Assembly (NCBI GenBank): GCA_964579775.1
Contig: CAZOGP010000004.1
Location: forward strand, 4,752-24,238
Source: an uncultured Candidatus Saccharibacteria bacterium
Lineage (GTDB): Bacteria; Patescibacteriota; Minisyncoccia; Portnoybacterales; GWB1-42-6
DNA: 19,487 nt
Reading direction: 5' to 3'
Shown here: positions 9,739 through 19,487 of the stretch, one piece after another
How the letters are laid out: every line of letters starts with the position of its first letter
How positions within the stretch are numbered: the stretch's first letter is position 1
Position numbers and translations under genes: made by a program
Notes under the pieces: generated by a model
The model's database searches: none
The model's input: only the letters and a program-made list of their open reading frames with translations
What the model was told of the DNA's origin: nothing

Positions 9739-10467
9739 ATGGGAATCATTGGCGCTTTATTTAACGAGATTCTTTATCGGCCGTTGTTCAACGGACTTAT
9801 TTTTTTATATAATGCGGTTCCGCCGCATGATTTTGGCGTGGCAATAATTTTATTGACCGTCATTATCCGGCTGATCTTGTACCCCCTGAACCAGAAGGCG
9901 ATCGTTTCTCAAAAAAGGCTCAGCCAGCTTCAGCCACAGGTTAAAGAGATCCAATCTCAAAACTCGACCAACAAGATCAAGCAGTCCCAGCTTTTGATGG
10001 AGCTTTATAAAAAGAACAATGTTAATCCAGCCTCCGGGTGTTTGCCGCTCTTACTTCAGTTGCCGATCTTGATTGCCTTGTACCAGGTTTTTTGGAACGG
10101 ATTAAATCCGGATAGCTTAAGCGCTTTATATTCTTTTGTGAGCCGGCCGGAGGTGATAAATCCAATGTTCTTAGGGTTGATGAGCCTGGCGAAGGCCAGC
10201 CCGGTCCTGGCGATCTTAGCCGGGGCGTTCACTTTTTGGCAGTCAAAAATGATGGTGCCGCAGCCAGCCGCCGCTGGCCAAGGCAGTGATTTTGGCGCCG
10301 CGATGAACAAGCAGATGCTTTATTTCATGCCGCTGTTTACTGTTTTTATCGCTTGGAGCTTGCCGGCGGGGCTGGCGCTTTATTGGGTGATAACGACGCT
10401 AGCGGGCATTTTGCAGCAATATTACGTGATTAAAAAAAATGGAACAGGAAAAATTATCAAAAATTAA
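9739..10467 (+). CDS. yidC: Membrane protein insertase YidC (short form)
   Basis: 242 aa and multi-TM. Motifs include ILLTVIIRLILYPL..K, ELYKKNNVNPASGCLPLLLQLPILIALY and LALYWVITTL. Confidence 0.9.
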   Translation: MGIIGALFNEILYRPLFNGLIFLYNAVPPHDFGVAIILLTVIIRLILYPLNQKAIVSQKRLSQLQPQVKEIQSQNSTNKIKQSQLLMELYKKNNVNPASGCLPLLLQLPILIALYQVFWNGLNPDSLSALYSFVSRPEVINPMFLGLMSLAKASPVLAILAGAFTFWQSKMMVPQPAAAGQGSDFGAAMNKQMLYFMPLFTVFIAWSLPAGLALYWVITTLAGILQQYYVIKKNGTGKIIKN

Positions 10468-12434: not shown

Positions 12435-13820
12435 ATGAAGCGTCAGCCCTGGCTAACTTTACTTTTGTTGCTTTTAGTCGCCTATCTCCCCTTTCAGGTT
12501 GCCCTGAATTTATCGCCTGATATCGACCTGATGTCCGGCCGGGTTTTGGTTTTGGGGCTGTTTTTTCTTTGGCTGATAAAAGAAACAGATCAACATAAAT
12601 TTTGGTGTCATCCCGGGCTTGCCGCGGGATCCAGGTCCCAAAACAAGTCCGGGGCGACAAAATTCTGGATTCCCGCTGGAGTTTACCCCGTACTGCGATA
12701 CGGGGCGGGAAGGACAGAGGGGTGGGCGCTGGTCTTATTTTTTGTTTTATCCGCAGTTTCAATTTTAGGCGCCGTCAATCAAGCCTGGGGTTGGCGTAAA
12801 CTTTTGTTTTTTGCTTCGATCTTTCCCCTTTTTTGGCTGACCGCGGCGTTGGTAAGAAATAAAGAACACACGAGGAAGATAATTTATATAATAATTGGCA
12901 GCGCGGCCGTTTCCGCCATTGTCGCCTTGGCGCAATTTTTAGCGCAATTTATTTTTGGGCTGGCCGCGGTTATGAGTTTTTGGTCGGTGCATATTTTACC
13001 GCTGTTTTCCGGCGCGGGTTTTGGTTCGCTGGTCGCGTCAAATCCCAGCTGGCTCGTAAATATTGGCGGGCAAACTGTGATGCGGGCCGTTGGGCTGTTT
13101 CCCGATCCGCATATGCTGGCTTTTTATTTGGGCCTCACTTCCCCGTTCGCACTGGCGCTGGCATTTTTTGGCCAGCGGCACCGCGGTATTTTTTTTACTG
13201 TTTACTGCTTGCTGTTAACCGTTTTATTCCTAACCTTTTCTCGAGGCGGCTATTTGGGGCTGTTATTTAGCCTGGCGGTTTTTATTTTTTTTGCCTGGCA
13301 GCGTTTTGGCAACAAGGCCAAAAAGTTTCTTGGCGCGACATCTTTATTGCTGGTAGTGATTTTGCTCTTGGTTGGCTGGCCGGTGGCAACGCGCCTAATA
13401 TCAAGTTTTGATTTTAGGGAAGGTTCAAATATGGGGCGCTTGGTTGTTTGGCAAGATTCCTGGGAGATCATCAAAAAAAGTCCGATTATCGGGGTCGGAC
13501 TGGGTAACTATTCTTTGGCCGTCAACTTCAATCAGGACTACCGCAACGCCGTCACTAGCCATAATTTATATTTGGACCTTTTGGCCGAGACGGGTCTTTT
13601 AGGACTGGCGGCGTGGCTGACGGTTCTGGGGCTGGGGGGTCTAGCCGCGTGGCGAAAGATAGGGTCGGAACCGGTTGTAGCGTTTAGTACACTGTCCGCC
13701 CTGGCTTATTTTGGCGCGCATTCATTTTTTGAGACCGCGATTTTTAATCCGACCGGGCTGGCGTTTTTAATGATAATTTTAGCTCTGTCTGTGGCGGAGA
13801 CCAAAGAAGATGTTCTATAG
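12435..13820 (+). CDS. O-antigen ligase family (Wzy_C domain) membrane protein, paralog 1, carrying an intragenic palindromic repeat
   Basis: Polytopic membrane protein. Motifs are FSRGGYLGLLFSLAVFIFF, GVGLGNYSLAV and SHNLYLDLLAETGLLGLAAWL (Wzy_C/WaaL-like H-N-x-y-L..e.G motif). Confidence 0.8.
   Translation: MKRQPWLTLLLLLLVAYLPFQVALNLSPDIDLMSGRVLVLGLFFLWLIKETDQHKFWCHPGLAAGSRSQNKSGATKFWIPAGVYPVLRYGAGRTEGWALVLFFVLSAVSILGAVNQAWGWRKLLFFASIFPLFWLTAALVRNKEHTRKIIYIIIGSAAVSAIVALAQFLAQFIFGLAAVMSFWSVHILPLFSGAGFGSLVASNPSWLVNIGGQTVMRAVGLFPDPHMLAFYLGLTSPFALALAFFGQRHRGIFFTVYCLLLTVLFLTFSRGGYLGLLFSLAVFIFFAWQRFGNKAKKFLGATSLLLVVILLLVGWPVATRLISSFDFREGSNMGRLVVWQDSWEIIKKSPIIGVGLGNYSLAVNFNQDYRNAVTSHNLYLDLLAETGLLGLAAWLTVLGLGGLAAWRKIGSEPVVAFSTLSALAYFGAHSFFETAIFNPTGLAFLMIILALSVAETKEDVL
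12606..12717. repeat. Palindromic repeat family copy B, inside CDS 12435-13820
   Basis: TGTCATCCCGGGCTTGCCGCGGGATCCAG (12606-12634) and CTGGATTCCCGCTGGAGTTTACCCCGTACTGCGATACGGGGCGGGAAGGACAG (12665-12717). The region is translated as CHPGLAAGSR...WIPAGVYPVLRYGAGRTE. Confidence 0.8.
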
Positions 13821-15213
13821 TCTGCAAACAAACTGGCAATTCGTAATTTTGTTTATCGGCCTTTTGGCCGCGGCTATTATCAACTGGAGAAAACCAGGTT
13901 GCGGCGCCTGGCTGATATTTTTTTTGTCGCCGCTTTATCTGTTAAAAATCGGCAATTGGCCCTTAACTGTCCTGGAGGCGCTGATGTGGTTGTTTATAGG
14001 AGTCTGGCTGGTAAGAAAAGTAAAAAATAGTTGTCATCCCGGGCTTGACCCGGGATCCAGGCCCTGGATTCCCGCCCTTCTTGCATCAGGATCTATGACT
14101 TGCGCGGGAATGACAAGAGGGGTTATTACCAAAGTAATCAAGAACGATATTTTTCTACCACCTTTACTGATTTTAGCTGGCGTTTTTATCTCCGCCGTCT
14201 TTTCGCCCGACCCGAAAACTGGCTTGGGTATTTTAAAATCCTGGTTCTTGGCCCCGATGATTTTTGCTTTTATTCTAAGAGATATTTTTGAGGGCGGTGG
14301 TTTAAAAGAAATGTTTTCGGCGCTATTTGTTTCTTCGGCCGCGGTGGCGGCAATAAGTTTTGTTTATTTGGCGTCCGGACATTTGACTTTTGACGGCCGT
14401 TTAACGGCTTTTTATCTGTCTCCCAATCACCTGGCTATGTATCTGGCGCCGGGGTTGCTGGTCGGCTTGGCTTTATGGTCGGACGCGAAAAAAACACACC
14501 AAAGAATCTTATTGTTTATTGGTTATTGTTTATTGGCTACTGTTTTATACGCCACTTATTCTTTTGGCGCCTGGCTTGGTCTGGCCGCGGCCGCGGTTTT
14601 AATTTTATTTTATCTTTGGCGTTTAAAATTAATGAGCCGTCGTCAATTGTTAATGGTTATTTGTTTATCGGTAATTTTATTTATATTTGTGCTTGGCCAG
14701 CAGTTGTTCGACGTAAATAACGATAAGCTATCTAATCTATTCTCCTCTCCCCGCTCCTCCTGGCAATCGCGCCTGATGGTCTGGCAGGCGGCTACCCAGA
14801 TCTTAAAAGACCACGGGTTTCTAGGGATCGGGCCGGGGCTGTTCCAGAACTATTATTTGGAGTACCAGCAATATTTTTCTGTGCCGTATTTGGAGTGGGC
14901 CGTGCCCCAGCCCCATAATTTATTTTTGGCCTGGTGGCTGCAAGCGGGCCTGGCAGGGTTGGTTGGTTTCTTTTGGCTACTGATAGTTTTTTTCCGACGG
15001 GGATTCAAGACACTAAAAAAACCCTCCTTCGTCCCACTAGGCGGGACTTCGGAGGGCAAGCAAAATCACCTCTGGATCATTATTTTAATGGCCGTAATGA
15101 CGTATTTTTTGGTCCACGGTCTAGTCGATACTACTTTCTGGAAAAATGACCTGGCGCTGATCTGGTGGGTTATTGTATTTTTAGGCTCCAGAGCAGGCCG
15201 TCGCGTTTATTGA
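13810..15213 (+). CDS. O-antigen ligase family (Wzy_C domain) membrane protein, paralog 2, carrying an intragenic palindromic repeat
   Basis: Polytopic membrane protein. Motifs are YSFGAWLGLAAAAVLILF, GIGPGLFQNYY and PHNLFLAWWLQAGLAGLVGFFWLL. It overlaps the preceding gene by 11 nt. Confidence 0.8.
   Translation: MFYSLQTNWQFVILFIGLLAAAIINWRKPGCGAWLIFFLSPLYLLKIGNWPLTVLEALMWLFIGVWLVRKVKNSCHPGLDPGSRPWIPALLASGSMTCAGMTRGVITKVIKNDIFLPPLLILAGVFISAVFSPDPKTGLGILKSWFLAPMIFAFILRDIFEGGGLKEMFSALFVSSAAVAAISFVYLASGHLTFDGRLTAFYLSPNHLAMYLAPGLLVGLALWSDAKKTHQRILLFIGYCLLATVLYATYSFGAWLGLAAAAVLILFYLWRLKLMSRRQLLMVICLSVILFIFVLGQQLFDVNNDKLSNLFSSPRSSWQSRLMVWQAATQILKDHGFLGIGPGLFQNYYLEYQQYFSVPYLEWAVPQPHNLFLAWWLQAGLAGLVGFFWLLIVFFRRGFKTLKKPSFVPLGGTSEGKQNHLWIIILMAVMTYFLVHGLVDTTFWKNDLALIWWVIVFLGSRAGRRVY
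14033..14116. repeat. Palindromic repeat family copy C, inside CDS 13810-15213
   Basis: TGTCATCCCGGGCTTGACCCGGGATCCAG (14033-14061) and CTGGATTCCCGC...GCGGGAATGACA (14065-14116). The region is translated as CHPGLDPGSRPWIPALLASGSMTCAGMT. Confidence 0.8.
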
Positions 15214-16366
15214 CGAAAAATAAGTAATCTTCTTTGGGCGAAAGAAATAATTCCTGGGCGTCAAAGCCGACCTGATCGGAAGAACCCAGGATTTTTGTTT
15301 TGGCGTTGGTTTCCAGGTTTATTTTGTAGAAATCATCCGCCAGGATGACCAGGCCCTTATAATAGTCATCCGGCCAGACGGCATTAGCCGATAGCTCTTG
15401 CGGCAGGGCGCAGAAGATCGTCCGGTCGTCGCTTGCCCAGACGCATTTATCCGCCAGGCCGCTAAGCTTTAAGTCTTTGGCATTGGCGCCGATGCCGTCC
15501 GTTAATGACAGGCCTGGGTTTTGGCCGCGGTCGTTAGTCGAGGAGAAAAGTATTTTATCGGCCCGAGGGGACCATTTAACACTTAAACCAAAGAGGTCGC
15601 TGAGCGCCCGGGAAAAGTCGCCGGTGGTTGAATTCAGAGCGTAAAGCAGGCCTTGCGCCAGGCCGCTGGGGGGCTGGCGCAGAGAGATTTTTTCTTTAAT
15701 GGGCCACTCCACGATCAAATTATCCAGGCGGGTCTTAAAAATATTTGCCCAACCGGAACCATCGGGGTTGGCCACACTGATATTGTGCTGGCCGGTGGCA
15801 GAGTCAATAAAATGATAGGCGATCTTTTTGCTGTCGGGCGACCAGGCCACCGAACCCATTTTTTCATTGAGGAGCGAAGACTGATTGTTGGTGTAGTCGT
15901 AAAAATATTTTTTAAGTTGATTGTTATCAGAAAAAAATCCAATGACCTTGGTTTTATCCGGCGACCAGAGCGCTTTGATCAAGCCGTTCAATGTCGTGGA
16001 CGAGATTTTTTTAAGGCTGGCGCCCAGGAAATCAGATTCCCAGACATTGCCGTTGGCGCGGGTGAAATACTTAACGGTTTTGCCGTCTTCTCCAATGGTT
16101 GGCGCCAGGACCGGCTCTTTGCTGATAGCTTTAATTTTTGAGGCCGTTTGGCCTGGGCTGATGCTTTGGTTGGCGCCGCTTCCCGGCAAGAACGATGAAC
16201 CGCCAGTAGTTTGTCCCGCGCCGGGTGAGGCGGAGGGCAGGCTGCCGCCCTGCTCCGTTTCTCCGCCCGGAGCGGTTGATTTAAAAAAGAAATTATAAAC
16301 TAACAGCGAGCCCAGCGATAGGACCAATAAGATTGAGGCGATGATGAGGATTTTTTTAGTGTTCAT
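15170..16366 (-). CDS. Membrane-anchored TolB-like beta-propeller (PD40/WD40-like repeat) protein
   Basis: N-terminal TM KILIIASILLVLSLGSLLVYNFFF, then a Gly/Ser/Pro-rich linker. Repeated WSPD-type blades are ALWSPDKTKVIGF, VAWSPDSKKIAYHF, VKWSPRADKILFSS and CVWASDDRTIFCA. Confidence 0.75.
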   Translation of the reverse strand: MNTKKILIIASILLVLSLGSLLVYNFFFKSTAPGGETEQGGSLPSASPGAGQTTGGSSFLPGSGANQSISPGQTASKIKAISKEPVLAPTIGEDGKTVKYFTRANGNVWESDFLGASLKKISSTTLNGLIKALWSPDKTKVIGFFSDNNQLKKYFYDYTNNQSSLLNEKMGSVAWSPDSKKIAYHFIDSATGQHNISVANPDGSGWANIFKTRLDNLIVEWPIKEKISLRQPPSGLAQGLLYALNSTTGDFSRALSDLFGLSVKWSPRADKILFSSTNDRGQNPGLSLTDGIGANAKDLKLSGLADKCVWASDDRTIFCALPQELSANAVWPDDYYKGLVILADDFYKINLETNAKTKILGSSDQVGFDAQELFLSPKEDYLFFVNKRDGLLWSLKIQ

Positions 16367-16407: not shown

Positions 16408-17076
16408 TTATTGGCAGGACGTACTGTCTGGGACGGACCTGGCAATACAGTTGGCCACCCCAAAAAAAAGCGGGCAAGCGTCTTTTGTTTTGTAGCAATT
16501 ATTTTTATCACACCAGCAAGTTTTAATTTTTTCCGTAGCAGGCGGCGGCCCCTGGCAATAGCAGCTATTGTTTTCAGCGGTAAATACGATGGGATTTGGC
16601 GCACACTTAGCGGTGCAGGCCTCTATGGTGGTTTGTTTAGTCAAGTAGGTTTGAGGCGTGACTGACGGTGATGCCGGCGCGGCGACATTGCCGAGCGGAG
16701 AAATTGATGGCGATAAATTCGTCAAACTCGGGTCAATGGTGGCCAAGATCAGCCAGGAACAGAGCAGCAAGGCGATGCCCATCAGCGCGCCAACGATCCA
16801 GTCTTTAGCCTTTTGCGTAGTCCCAACGGACGGGGCCAGCATGTAATTTATCCCGCCCCAAACAATCGCGCCCACCGCCAGGAACCCGGCCAGGGATAAA
16901 CCGAAAATGAATAGATACCGGACATAGACGCCGGGGTCGGAGACGATTGGGGAGGTCATGCCGGGTAGACTAATTTCAACTTTGTAGGCGGCGTGTCCAA
17001 TAGTCGCGTAGAAAAGTAAAGATAAAGCCTCGAAGATAGTTAGAAAAATTTTTTTATGATTTGAAAATAAATTCAT
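16408..17076 (-). CDS. Exported VirB2/TrbC-like two-helix pilin module fused to a 99-aa, 10-cysteine C-terminal domain
   Basis: Signal peptide with GHA|A. Hydrophobic hairpin YLFIFGLSLAGFLAVGAIVWGGINYM - APSVGTTQKAKDW - IVGALMGIALLLCSWLILATI. The C-terminus holds 10 Cys (EACTAKC..SCYC..TCWC..NNC..DAC..ANC..STC). Confidence 0.65.
   Translation of the reverse strand: MNLFSNHKKIFLTIFEALSLLFYATIGHAAYKVEISLPGMTSPIVSDPGVYVRYLFIFGLSLAGFLAVGAIVWGGINYMLAPSVGTTQKAKDWIVGALMGIALLLCSWLILATIDPSLTNLSPSISPLGNVAAPASPSVTPQTYLTKQTTIEACTAKCAPNPIVFTAENNSCYCQGPPPATEKIKTCWCDKNNCYKTKDACPLFFGVANCIARSVPDSTSCQ
16709..16968. repeat. 260-bp direct repeat, copy 1 (100% identical to 17673-17932)
   Basis: Base-by-base comparison shows identity from GGCGATAAATTCG... 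to ...CATGCCGGGTAG. The flanks diverge immediately on both sides. Confidence 0.95.
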
Positions 17077-17107
17077 TTTGGTTTTGGCCTCGTAGTTGAG
17101 CGATTAC

Positions 17108-17159
17108 CTGGATTCCCGCCGGAGTTTACCCCGTACTTGATACGGGGCGGGAATGACAG
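17108..17159. repeat. Palindromic repeat family copy D, intercistronic between the two pilin-like genes
   Basis: CTGGATTCCCGCCGGAGTTTACCCCGTACTTGATACGGGGCGGGAATGACAG forms a nested hairpin (ATTCCCGCC/GGCGGGAAT outer, CCCCGTA/TACGGGG inner). It is near-identical to 12665-12717. Confidence 0.8.
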
Positions 17160-17170
17160 AAGGCCTTACT

Positions 17171-18055
17171 TTAGACGCAATTGGCTTTAACACTGTAATG
17201 GATGTGGTCGGTGTGGCTGGCGCAGCTTTTGCTTTTTGAAGCGTTTTGTCCCCCGCCGGCGCGGCAGTATTGGGGAAATCCGGCGTAGAATAGCTGGTCA
17301 ACGCATTTGTCTTGACTTAACGTTTGCATAACTTGCTGTTTTTGAGAGTCGTTTAAATTAGAAACCCGGATATCGGCCGCTCTCCCCGTGCAGTGGGTGG
17401 ATGAGCCGCAAGCGGCGCCCGGCACGCAGGTGTCAGTCGCAGAACAACCGTGGCTGCCTGTTGTTTCAGTTATTGTAACTTCAACCGGAAGCGAACCAAG
17501 ATCTTTTACCAGGGTGTTGTTTACTTGTCCGGTTTGAATGTCTTGGCAAATCTTGGCGGTTTTGCATTTTATTTCTTGCGCGCCGGTTATGGGCGGGGTG
17601 ACAGCTCCCTCTGTTAGGCCGGAATCCGGGGGGCTTGGAGGTTCGGGGACGGTTACGATTTCTAATTGGGTGGGCGATAAATTCGTCAAACTCGGGTCAA
17701 TGGTGGCCAAGATCAGCCAGGAACAGAGCAGCAAGGCGATGCCCATCAGCGCGCCAACGATCCAGTCTTTAGCCTTTTGCGTAGTCCCAACGGACGGGGC
17801 CAGCATGTAATTTATCCCGCCCCAAACAATCGCGCCCACCGCCAGGAACCCGGCCAGGGATAAACCGAAAATGAATAGATACCGGACATAGACGCCGGGG
17901 TCGGAGACGATTGGGGAGGTCATGCCGGGTAGTTTTATCTCTAGCGTATAGGCCAGGGCACTTGGAGCGATAAAAAAAATAACAGATAATAGGCTTAAGA
18001 AAATAAATTTTAATTTTAGAAGAGTCTTTAGCAAGAAGGTTTTACTTAATTTCAA
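17171..18055 (-). CDS. Exported VirB2/TrbC-like pilin module fused to a Hedgehog/DD-peptidase-fold (LAS, peptidase M15-like) zinc hydrolase domain
   Basis: Signal peptide with ALA|Y and the same 87-aa two-helix module as 16408-17076, then a Pro-rich linker PEPPSPPDSG. The C-terminal domain has VEVTITETTGSHG...STHCTGRAADIRV (S-x-H-x-x-G-x-A-x-D, i.e. H-x6-D) and DHIHYSVKA (H-x-H). The start is TTG at 18055, with no in-frame ATG before residue 45. Confidence 0.7.
   Translation of the reverse strand: MKLSKTFLLKTLLKLKFIFLSLLSVIFFIAPSALAYTLEIKLPGMTSPIVSDPGVYVRYLFIFGLSLAGFLAVGAIVWGGINYMLAPSVGTTQKAKDWIVGALMGIALLLCSWLILATIDPSLTNLSPTQLEIVTVPEPPSPPDSGLTEGAVTPPITGAQEIKCKTAKICQDIQTGQVNNTLVKDLGSLPVEVTITETTGSHGCSATDTCVPGAACGSSTHCTGRAADIRVSNLNDSQKQQVMQTLSQDKCVDQLFYAGFPQYCRAGGGQNASKSKSCASHTDHIHYSVKANCV
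17673..17932. repeat. 260-bp direct repeat, copy 2 (100% identical to 16709-16968)
   Basis: See copy 1. The offset between copies is exactly 964 nt. Confidence 0.95.
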
Positions 18056-18788
18056 CGCTTAAATTAGCCGTAGATTGCTGCAGTTGGTCGGCTTTATTTT
18101 GAATAAAGAGCGACAGGTCTTTAAAAATAGACGCCGATAAATTGCCGGCGGGAATTTTTATTGTCAGCTGGTTGGGATTTTTTTCATCAAGCGTGTCTAA
18201 AATTTGTCTGTCTATCGCCCAGCTGAAAGCTAAGTCGGCGATATTTTGAGTGTTGAAAAACAGAGGCTCGGCCAGCAGGGTCAGGTTCTGGCCGGTGGCG
18301 GCGATTAGCGAGTCTTGCGCGGCATAGTTGCTGTTGGTAGTTTTAAATAAGATCTGGGGGCTGGCGATCTTTATGGTTAAAAATCCCCGCCAGATAATCT
18401 TTTCTTGGCTGTCTAATATTTGAGATTCTATTTCATGGTCGTCCCCGCCCCACTTGGTGGTTCGGAACTGAAACGACGACCTGCCTATGCCTTGCGCCGA
18501 ATACATAATTTCGTTATCCAGGAGCCAGCGATAATAGAGCGCGTCGGGATTTTGGGAGAGTTTTTTGGTCGGCAAAACCGCCACTTTTATGGTGCTGCCG
18601 CGCGAAGGCAGAGCCTTGCCTTCATAATCCAGCGGCACATAAGAATTGCTGGACCAGGTAAGCAGGAAATCATTGTCAACGGCGCGGGCGACGGGAGGCG
18701 CTGCCAGCGCGAAATAAAGTCCGGCCACAATGAGAAGGATTATTAATAAAGAGTTAACAGAGGTAGATTTTTTTAATAGATTGAACAT
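18042..18788 (-). CDS. Exported hypothetical protein with two tandem beta-rich domains
   Basis: Signal/anchor SLLIILLIVAGLYFALAAPPVARA|VD. The halves share the pattern [ST]xIxVxxxP...[YF]xWxxDxxI (STIKVAVLP..YYRWLLDNEI versus QNLTLLAEP..AFSWAIDRQI). The stop overlaps the next gene's start by 14 nt. Confidence 0.6.
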   Translation of the reverse strand: MFNLLKKSTSVNSLLIILLIVAGLYFALAAPPVARAVDNDFLLTWSSNSYVPLDYEGKALPSRGSTIKVAVLPTKKLSQNPDALYYRWLLDNEIMYSAQGIGRSSFQFRTTKWGGDDHEIESQILDSQEKIIWRGFLTIKIASPQILFKTTNSNYAAQDSLIAATGQNLTLLAEPLFFNTQNIADLAFSWAIDRQILDTLDEKNPNQLTIKIPAGNLSASIFKDLSLFIQNKADQLQQSTANLSVEIK

Positions 18789-18803
18789 TGTTGTGAGATT
18801 TCT

Positions 18804-18940
18804 CCCTCTCTTAAGTTAAGAGAGGGTTAGGGTGAGTTATGCTCATTGAGTCGCTGAAGTCAAACTTCAAAGGCAACCCGAAGTCTGACTTCAGCGACCG
18901 GCTATAACTCCTCCCCACCTCCTCTTAATTTAAGAGGAGG
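18804..18940. repeat. Composite multi-hairpin intergenic element (copy 2 of 2; see 940-1079)
   Basis: CCCTCTCTTAA-g-TTAAGAGAGGG (18804-18826, followed by TTAGGGTGAG). A 19-bp stem with one mismatch, GTCGCTGAAGTCAAACTTC...GAAGTCTGACTTCAGCGAC (18850-18898). CCTCCTCTTAA-t-TTAAGAGGAGG (18918-18940). Confidence 0.6.
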
Positions 18941-18964
18941 AGAAGCTTGCGTTGGCTCCCCTTT

Positions 18965-19444
18965 TTATATTTGTTGATTTTTTAACATTTTATTGGCCAT
19001 CGCTAGACCGCCGGGGTTTTTCATGGCGTCATAGACTTGGGCCGCCGCCTTCTTTTTAATGTAAGAGTAGACGACTATGCCGATATTGCTGGGCAGGATG
19101 CCTAAAGATACAACGTCTATAATTTTGGCCACGATAAAAGTAAGTATCGGGTCAAGCTTGGGATTATAACCTTTTTGCCACCAGCCAAAAATCAGGCCGG
19201 CCAGGGTTTCAGTGAATAGATTAATTATGGGAATAAGTCCGATTAAGTCAAACAAGGCGGCTAAACACAGCATCTCCCAGGGAAAAGAAGCGGGCTCGGG
19301 CGGAGCGATGGGCCGCTCGGACGACTCGGTTTGCCTGGCGCGGTCTCCTTCTGTCTGCTGGGCTTGTCGGGTTTTATCTCGCTCGGACCGTTGGGCTTGC
19401 CGGCTGCGGTCCTCTTCAAATTGTTGTTGGTAGTTGTCGGGCAT
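18965..19444 (-). CDS. Hypothetical membrane protein with charged 11-aa repeat N-terminus
   Basis: The N-terminus has three repeats, RSRQAQRSERD / KTRQAQQTEGD / RARQTESSERP. Hydrophobic segments follow: MLCLAALFDLIGLIPIINLF, LAGLIFGWW and IIDVVSLGILPSNIGIVVYSYI. The ATG at 19444 is preferred over the track's TTG at 19468. Confidence 0.55.
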   Translation of the reverse strand: MPDNYQQQFEEDRSRQAQRSERDKTRQAQQTEGDRARQTESSERPIAPPEPASFPWEMLCLAALFDLIGLIPIINLFTETLAGLIFGWWQKGYNPKLDPILTFIVAKIIDVVSLGILPSNIGIVVYSYIKKKAAAQVYDAMKNPGGLAMANKMLKNQQI

Positions 19445-19487
19445 GAGTTCATTTAAACATTTAAACAATTTAACAACTTAACAAAAT

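Follow-up and report, generated by a model that had tools for sequence, protein, structure and literature searches.

Two adjacent genes for pilin-like proteins, g2 and g1, in a 19,487-nt stretch of contig CAZOGP010000004.1 from an uncultured member of the Patescibacteria (this whole stretch is the window hereafter) share a 260-bp core that is identical base for base. Recurrent interlocus gene conversion (concerted evolution) between the cores of an old tandem VirB2-like pair is very probably the source of this identity. The pair sits in an origin-proximal, relaxase-poor, VirB4-containing type IV secretion system (T4SS) locus of Patescibacteria (Paceibacteria/Portnoybacteria-like). A sequence-only reading of the same DNA had proposed that recent gene conversion or cassette-type recombination homogenizes the pilin module, and the comparison of nine lineages given below upholds that proposal.

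An identical core in two tandem genes

By direct string comparison, positions 16709-16968 and 17673-17932 match at 260/260 bases with an offset of 964 and form a maximal exact match. A repeat finder returned a single long direct repeat in the region, 16709-16989 against 17673-17953, of 281 nt at 97%; together the two methods bear out the length and offset given in the sequence-only reading. As the longest repeat expected by chance in 19.5 kb is about 13-14 nt by our rough estimate, one of 260 nt is far above chance. At the low-coordinate edge of the repeat, which is 3′ in the sense of the genes, identity drops to background at once, and at the high-coordinate (5′) edge the next 21 nt match at 13/21 positions before background is reached. 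The G+C content of the repeat is 57% versus 48% for the window.

Both copies lie in frame within tandem open reading frames (ORFs) on the minus strand, copy 1 in g1 (16709..16968; codons LPGMTS...TNLSP) and copy 2 in g2 (17673..17932), and they encode the same 86-87 residues, LPGMTSPIV...IDPSLTNLSP (LPGMTSPIVSDPGVYVRYLFIFGLSLAGFLAVGAIVWGGINYMLAPSVGTTQKAKDWIVGALMGIALLLCSWLILATIDPSLTNLSP). The upstream gene, g2 (17171..18055, minus strand), starts with a TTG codon that overlaps the stop of the gene before it and encodes 294 aa, comprising a signal peptide, a T4SS_pilin-like two-helix core, a Pro-rich linker and a predicted LAS-type zinc peptidase domain. The downstream gene, g1 (16408..17076, minus strand), encodes 222 aa with a signal peptide, the same core, a Pro/Ser linker and a Cys-rich C-terminal domain (~16411-16704); its protein is encoded identically on three independent contigs. 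The C-terminal domains of g1 and g2 are unrelated to each other, and their signal peptides are about 31% identical, the background level for signal peptides. The earlier statement that neither flank has obvious similarity is accordingly correct for the C-terminal side but slightly overstated for the 5′ side, as a short motif, A-Y-x-x-E-I, stands directly before the tract in both genes.

Single nucleotide polymorphisms (SNPs) inside the repeat are found only at 16903 and 16771 in copy 1, equivalent to 17867 and 17735 in copy 2, where contig L006 varies, and both variants are synonymous. At 16903 and 16771, in that order, copy 1 reads C,C in the window, T,C in L001, C,T in L002, and T,T in L003 and L006. 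At a spacing of 132 nt, these sites cannot be phased in short-read assemblies. Contigs L001-L003, independent short contigs from three other samples, span the region from the g2 C-terminus into g1 with 1-2 SNPs, and the junction from upstream sequence into the core is spanned by L027 and L006. L001-L003 and L027 all have a terminus within the repeat or close to it: L027 breaks off within the repeat, and the start of L001 lies exactly 127 nt into it, suggesting an assembly k-mer of about 127.

Paralogous cores across related lineages

A metagenome scan with the core alignment recovered 76 loci. The two-gene arrangement is common to nine related lineages, and every locus of the closer clade that has both genes carries near-identical cores. 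Within-locus core identity is 260/260 in the window, 262/263 in L005, 98.0% in L023, 95.0% in L009, 94.3% in L007, 89.5% in L013 and 89.1% in L019, and among the pairs that are cut it is 96.7% in L011 (where the contig end truncates the second copy), 94.3% in L015 and 92/92 in L020. When aligned by codon, the cores of the 7 complete pairs are 85-100% identical in DNA within a genome versus 57-71% between genomes; the three cut pairs are 94-100% identical within the locus.

These loci bear on the possibility that the window genome has one core gene only, with the second copy, or the 100% identity, made by the assembler or by polishing. Such an artefact would fit the single-gene contigs from the window's own population, namely L006, which is 99.7-99.9% identical to the window and joins the g2 signal peptide and core to the g1 C-terminus with 964 bp missing, and another contig of 1148 nt that encodes a 227-aa product of the same single-gene type (P0049). 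It would also fit the contigs that break in or near the repeat (L001, L027) and the unphased haplotypes at the two variable sites. However, in L001-L003, from three samples, the segment between the repeats (segment B, with the g2 cargo and the g1 signal peptide) runs into core sequence at both of its ends. The two-gene layout is found as well in L007, L009, L013 and L019, where the cores are 5-11% diverged and hence trivially assemblable, and the near-perfect match of L005 lies on a 420-kb contig of a different project. Given the above, an assembly artefact is very unlikely.

Outside the cores the two genes follow a different pattern. The LAS domain of the upstream gene in the window is 85% identical in amino-acid sequence to that of L009, 68% to L007, 56% to L019 and 51% to L023, and it is unrelated to the C-terminus of the downstream gene. 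The LAS domains and the mature N-termini group by gene position and not by genome, the mature N-termini being paralogue-specific across lineages (Y-[TE]-L-E in the upstream gene and Y-[KN]-[VI]-E-[IV]-S in the downstream gene). Since the cores are homogenized within genomes while the flanks are orthologous across lineages, the duplication is old and the identity young. A recent tandem duplication in the window genome, followed by replacement of the flanks without conversion, could in principle also leave an identical core between unrelated flanks if domains were shuffled. Yet the same paralogue-specific N-termini and an orthologous LAS domain are present in lineages whose cores are 30-40% apart in DNA, with saturated synonymous divergence (dS). 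As the two genes are common to such lineages, the duplication must be far older than the identity, and a fresh duplication would need nine independent recurrences with the same architecture, making this scenario highly improbable.

Synonymous sites in the core likewise follow the genome and not the gene. Over the 72-codon core (Nei-Gojobori), dS between paralogues is 0 in the window and 0.12, 0.09, 0.28, 0.54 and 0.14 in relatives, versus 1.3-3.5 or incalculable (saturated) between orthologues, for which nonsynonymous divergence (dN) is 0.19-0.43. These values, along with the orthology of the upstream LAS domain, agree with the earlier argument that a simple old duplication would not give this pattern. 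A cause that would need no recombination has also to be considered, namely very strong purifying selection acting on the protein or on a nucleotide element embedded in the coding sequence: nearly all differences in the diverged pairs are synonymous and dN/dS is ~0-0.1 in four pairs and 0.32 in L023, so the core is strongly constrained. Protein selection cannot erase synonymous differences, however, and as the synonymous sites are homogenized, selection at the protein level alone is not the cause; moreover, the dN values indicate that the core protein can change freely from one lineage to another. An embedded element extending over all 260 nt is disfavored by the identity of only 57-71% between lineages, and scanning the window against Rfam returned no family. 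Selection without recombination is likewise highly improbable as the origin of the identity.

The least probable explanation is programmed variation, either a switch between expressed and silent cassettes of the pilE/pilS type or the template and variable repeats of a diversity-generating retroelement (DGR), for although pilin-like genes, a repeated segment and sharp boundaries would fit, each copy belongs to a complete ORF that has a start and a signal peptide of its own rather than to a silent promoterless cassette, recombination homogenizes the conserved core rather than diversifying a variable region, no reverse transcriptase was recognized among the translated ORFs of the window (by eye only, without a Pfam scan of every ORF), and the mismatches between paralogues in relatives, most of them synonymous transitions, affect all four bases without the adenine bias that a DGR would need.

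Gene conversion is further suggested by the limits of the tract, which vary by lineage in length (198 nt in L023, 323 nt in L013) and in the position of both the 5′ and 3′ ends, pointing to independent conversion events. The G+C content at third codon positions (GC3) is 0.73 in the core; the flanking parts of the two genes have values of 0.35-0.54, and other genes in the window values of 0.46-0.64. Core GC3 is raised in 6/7 lineages. The raised GC3 is compatible with GC-biased conversion and may be a signature of that process in a Patescibacteria genome. Further copies of the exact module on other C-termini, for which the sequence-only reading had suggested a search, did not appear, as the metagenome scan contained no third copy of the exact core in another context.

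Several points weigh against recurrent conversion between VirB2-like cores. All data are short-read metagenome assemblies, and a 260-nt exact repeat exceeds typical k-mers, so the consensus within it can mix copies, as the four haplotypes show; the true identity between copies may be 258-260 of 260, i.e. 99.2-100%. No RecA gene lies in the window. The raised GC3 could instead reflect codon choice in membrane helices. Some of the cargo swaps described below could be chimeric joins through the shared core, that of L008, with one junction seen, being the weakest. Finally, the matches of g1 and g2 to the T4SS_pilin family (PF18895), at 23.5 and 22.9 bits, are under the gathering score of 26.6.

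Possible deletions and replacement of cargo domains

As the repeats are direct, recombination between them favors deletion or duplication, and inversion is not expected. The single-gene form, in which the upstream signal peptide and core are joined to the downstream C-terminus, is found in three lineages: in L006 for the window, in L010 for L005 and in L018 for L023. These contigs could be either assembly artefacts or real deletion variants. The sequence-only reading had regarded the repeat as a substrate for deletion or inversion and as a likely site of assembly collapse; the single-gene contigs are the product that collapse or deletion would give, and only the part on inversion has to be dropped.

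A different single-gene arrangement is seen in L004, where one core-bearing gene (9905-10411) has a short Pro/Ala-rich tail and a mature N-terminus of the downstream-gene type. It is followed by about 300 nt of non-coding sequence where relatives carry the Cys-rich domain. The arrangement in L004 may have arisen through loss or decay of a gene and not through a simple deletion between repeats.

Swapping of the C-terminal cargo, also raised in the sequence-only reading, is observed between near-identical strains at the edges of the module. Where L019 encodes a core followed by LAS, L021+L025 encode a core followed by YkuD, along with a different downstream signal peptide, between flanks with 98.8% and 99.8% identity to L019. 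Two further samples are the source of L021 and L025, which match at 399/399 positions where they overlap, and the segment replaced is precisely what lies between core 1 and core 2. Chimeric assembly is unlikely in this case because both junctions are present in separate assemblies. Between L013 and L016 only the C-terminal domain of the downstream gene differs, with flanks that are 95% and 99.7% identical, and L008 encodes SLT where L009 and L011 have LAS, with an upstream flank that is 98.6% identical. The SLT (81 bits) and YkuD (68 bits) domains pass Pfam thresholds inside core-bearing ORFs, and further relatives carry zincin-like or beta/gamma-crystallin domains.

The upstream genes of L009 (4128-4871) and L011 (4896-5777) also differ from each other, at 247 and 293 aa, on contigs that are 99.98% identical. 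An in-frame deletion in L009 takes the linker and the N-terminal part ahead of the LAS catalytic core, a difference that may lie either between the strains or between the assemblies.

The pilin-like core and the C-terminal domains

An exhaustive phmmer search found 9012 representative relatives, most with the module at residues ~30-125 and tails of 0-300+ residues. Scores against PF18895 are 16.6-23.9 bits in relatives, and all alignments cover about profile positions 16-71 of 71. Phmmer matches that exceed the PF18895 threshold are P0163 (E 6.7e-13) with 37.5 bits, P0182 (E 2.0e-12) with 30.7 bits and P0050 (E 1.3e-65) with 56.4 bits. An AlphaFold2 (AF2) model of g2 has a predicted local distance difference test score (pLDDT) of 80 and consists of a signal-peptide helix (residues 5-33) and two long helices (53-89 and 92-119), which, as read from the sequence, are joined by a short basic loop, APSVGTTQKAKD. 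This predicted helical hairpin, together with transitive homology at the level of Pfam, suggests a VirB2 fold for the core. Searching solved structures with a profile of the core gave no significant pilin match (the 7jsv pilin at E = 6), exact-protein look-ups of g2, in its TTG-start version, and of P0008 gave no match, and a look-up of protein clusters returned no names.

Some relatives hold more than one core. P0050 (618 aa), P0051 (612 aa) and P0052 (497 aa) have 3-4 pilin-like cores per predicted polypeptide, and P0050 carries an SLT domain in addition. Genuine multi-core proteins are one possibility; the other is read-through of tandem genes, perhaps under an alternative genetic code.

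The C-terminal domain of g2 (residues 146-294; 17174..17620, minus strand) is predicted from AF2 and Foldseek to have a LAS-family metallopeptidase fold (MepA / Sonic hedgehog N-domain / VanY-like), and its motifs and model suggest that it is a LAS-type zinc peptidoglycan peptidase. Modeled alone, the domain has a pLDDT of 91.8. The top 49 Foldseek matches in the Protein Data Bank (PDB) are of the LAS family as we recognized them, with TM-scores of only 0.28-0.49 and none at E <= 1e-3; matches include MepA (prob 0.98, E 2e-3), hedgehog N-domains (Shh-N), VldE, 1lbu, Ply500 and LysECD7. Foldseek with the whole two-domain model of g2 gave matches at noise level only. The Pfam family Peptidase_M15_3 scores 18.0 bits on g2, below its gathering score of 23.2, and a profile search of the PDB with the domain returned only Shh, at E = 0.3. 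The zinc-ligand motifs H76-x6-D83 and H139-I-H141 (alignment numbering) are invariant in 15 sequences.

The Cys-rich C-terminal domain of g1 has no family match in Pfam. Its positional counterparts, L005_9998 and L019_5001, are Cys-rich at the C-terminus too, where they do not clearly resemble g1 in sequence.

Locus context

As the window contains dnaA, dnaN, rnpA, yidC and jag, it represents the origin region. Directly upstream of g2 is a gene for a 248-aa secreted protein (18042..18788, minus strand), which has homologues at the same position in L004, L005 and L027. Beyond it lies a gene for a 167-aa small membrane protein (18965..19468, minus strand) that in relatives (L027, L005, L004) is directly downstream of virB4. 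Neither of these two neighbors has a family in Pfam or NCBIfam. L027, a 96.7%-identical strain, reaches beyond the end of the window and encodes a 613-aa VirB4 directly upstream of the 167-aa homologue; this VirB4 matches NCBIfam NF045971 (CD1110-family VirB4) with 380 bits, over a cut-off of 325. The virB4 genes in L005, L004 and L027 are confirmed by Pfam and NCBIfam. Downstream of g1 is a gene for a 398-aa secreted TolB/PD40-like beta-propeller protein (15170..16366, minus strand), assigned by a weak TolB propeller match, whose position is kept in L004, L005, L010 and L016.

The order virB4, small transmembrane protein, ~247/248-aa protein, core gene(s) and TolB-like protein is thus common to L005, L004 and L027. 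The core genes in this order are one for core and enzyme followed by one for core and a Cys-rich or short tail, L004 holding one core gene only. A scan of genome contigs yielded just two loci; L005, which is Ca. Portnoybacteria STC_33, and L004 are species-representative genomes.

The spacer between g2 and g1 (17077..17170, minus strand) holds a 55-nt palindromic repeat element at 17108-17163 that is also found at 12665-12721. Its predicted RNA fold has a free energy of -32.1 kcal/mol (z = -3.2). The palindrome of ~55 nt (…GTCATTCCCGCCCCGTATCAAGTACGGGGTAAACTCCGGCGGGAATCCAG…) lies in frame within an O-antigen-ligase-like ORF (12435-13820), and shorter relatives of 35 nt are present at 14031-14065 and 2400-2434. 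The ligase-like ORFs of L004 and L005 have similar in-frame peptides, 'HPGLDPGSR…WIPAFAGMT'. The element looks like one of the repetitive extragenic palindromic (REP) or miniature inverted-repeat transposable element (MITE) type, one whose insertion into coding sequence is tolerated.

Between the 248-aa and 167-aa genes, the spacer (18789-18964) contains three consecutive hairpins, with an imperfect inverted repeat at 18800-18944 and no match in Rfam. A consensus scan for promoters and terminators gave sites no more frequent than in shuffled sequence and was not used. Elsewhere in the window, adjoining yebC/ruvC, ORF 134-922 encodes a secreted protein that has a stalk rich in Thr, Pro and Ala and is anchored in the membrane at its C-terminus; its N-terminal region resembles, by eye, a lamin-tail (LTD) domain.

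Proposed mechanism and significance

We count the identity, the synteny, the paralogue-versus-orthologue pattern, the synonymous homogenization and the cargo replacements as observations, and the following steps would connect them. Recent non-reciprocal homologous recombination between the direct-repeat cores, 964 bp apart, would have left the 260-bp footprint in the window, presumably by homologous recombination of the RecA type. Such conversion would recur, keeping the cores near-identical inside each lineage while the core pair drifts between lineages. The tract would stop 3′ of the core because the cargo domains are unrelated and homology ends there, and it would rarely extend 5′ because there the signal peptide and N-terminus, each specific to its paralogue, differ too much for exchange. 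Over time, these two limits may sharpen the boundaries of the tract.

The cores may also provide the homology by which DNA lying between them, or beyond them, is replaced, which would account for LAS, SLT or YkuD cargo at the same place in close strains. Both genes persist despite a direct repeat that is prone to deletion, suggesting that there is selection for both cargos. Selection may likewise favor matched cores, possibly because the two proteins use a common insertion and assembly or T4SS machinery, or because they co-assemble. After signal peptide cleavage the N-terminus is likely outside the membrane, the loop inside and the C-terminus outside, which would place the enzyme cargo outside the membrane. 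There it could remodel the peptidoglycan of its own cell or of the host and supply the wall-opening function of a VirB1-like protein.

It is possible, although we consider it doubtful, that the core is a polymerization or docking unit of a T4SS pilus, with co-assembling subunits kept matched by gene conversion and C-terminal domains that serve as swappable 'warheads'. On that scenario one gene may supply a LAS peptidase, an SLT lytic transglycosylase or a YkuD transpeptidase as its warhead and the other gene a Cys-rich or short tail, and the warheads may be displayed outside the membrane or on a filament and be swapped between strains via the cores. If subunits of this kind do co-assemble, the enzyme-bearing pilin would be the 'missing VirB1', or a weapon or tool acting on the host cell wall in epibiotic attachment.

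The locus offers a concrete candidate for a wall-remodeling component and is a natural experiment on which part of a pilin must stay matched. It is also of practical concern, as near-identical direct repeats of 200-320 bp break or collapse short-read assemblies, with single-gene chimeric contigs in three lineages. Gene counts, 'pilin array' statistics and domain architectures derived from metagenome-assembled genomes will consequently be biased at this locus.

Comparison with known systems

In Patescibacteria, a VirB4-centered, relaxase-poor T4SS locus next to dnaA/dnaN/rnpA has been described (Quinonero-Coronel et al., Microb Genom 2025, PMC12102498), in which pilin genes of the PF18895 type lie close to virB4 and frequently form tandem arrays of 2-11 members. 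Wang et al. (Cell 2023) is cited in PMC12102498 and PMC12857230 for Patescibacteria T4SS loci with VirB2-like pilins, and no T4SS other than that of Patescibacteria has been reported as essential for its bearer to grow on a host (PMC12857230). The window is like these loci in having dnaA, dnaN, rnpA and yidC, with virB4 just past its end. The published arrays, however, have a mean amino-acid identity of 25% and a maximum of 54% and are described as 'structurally conserved but sequence-divergent' (PMC12102498), whereas here the cores are identical in DNA and the divergence is in the appended domains. This is a regime unlike that of divergent arrays, with the core kept identical by recombination and the fused cell-wall enzymes exchanged between strains. 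Because only the core is shared, identity over the whole protein would also be low here and a measure based on whole proteins would miss such pairs. PMC12102498 makes no mention of gene conversion or of pilin-hydrolase fusions, and our literature search, within the searchable library only, found no paper on conversion between these genes or on such fusions.

Most genomes with VirB2 lack VirB1 (PMC12102498). Cell-wall hydrolases of monoderm T4SSs include the VirB1-like PrgK, TraG of pIP501 and TcpG (cited in PMC12102498). The proteins studied here resemble them in having peptidoglycan-cleaving domains (SLT, peptidases) encoded in a T4SS locus and an N-terminal membrane anchor. They differ in that the anchor is a VirB2-like two-helix pilin core and not a simple transmembrane helix, and in that the type of enzyme is interchangeable between strains (LAS, SLT or YkuD).

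Interlocus gene conversion and concerted evolution of bacterial paralogues are known from tufA/tufB, from babA/babB and other hop genes of Helicobacter, and from the opa genes of Neisseria. As in those systems, the paralogues are closer within a genome than the orthologues are, the tracts have sharp edges in coding sequence, and the parts that are not homogenized carry the functional difference. The differences are that the present host is an ultra-small member of the Patescibacteria, that the family is T4SS pilin-like, and that the homogenized part is the membrane and assembly core of proteins with non-homologous cargo.

Neisseria pilE/pilS is similar in that a pilin gene undergoes non-reciprocal recombination between repeated pilin segments. 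In that system, however, the pilin is that of a type IV pilus, the donors are silent and promoterless, and a variable region is diversified, whereas here the proteins are T4SS pilin-like, both genes are complete, and a conserved region is homogenized. The mechanism is thus a textbook one, and both the type of locus and its VirB2-like arrays have been published; what is new is an ordinary mechanism at a new place.

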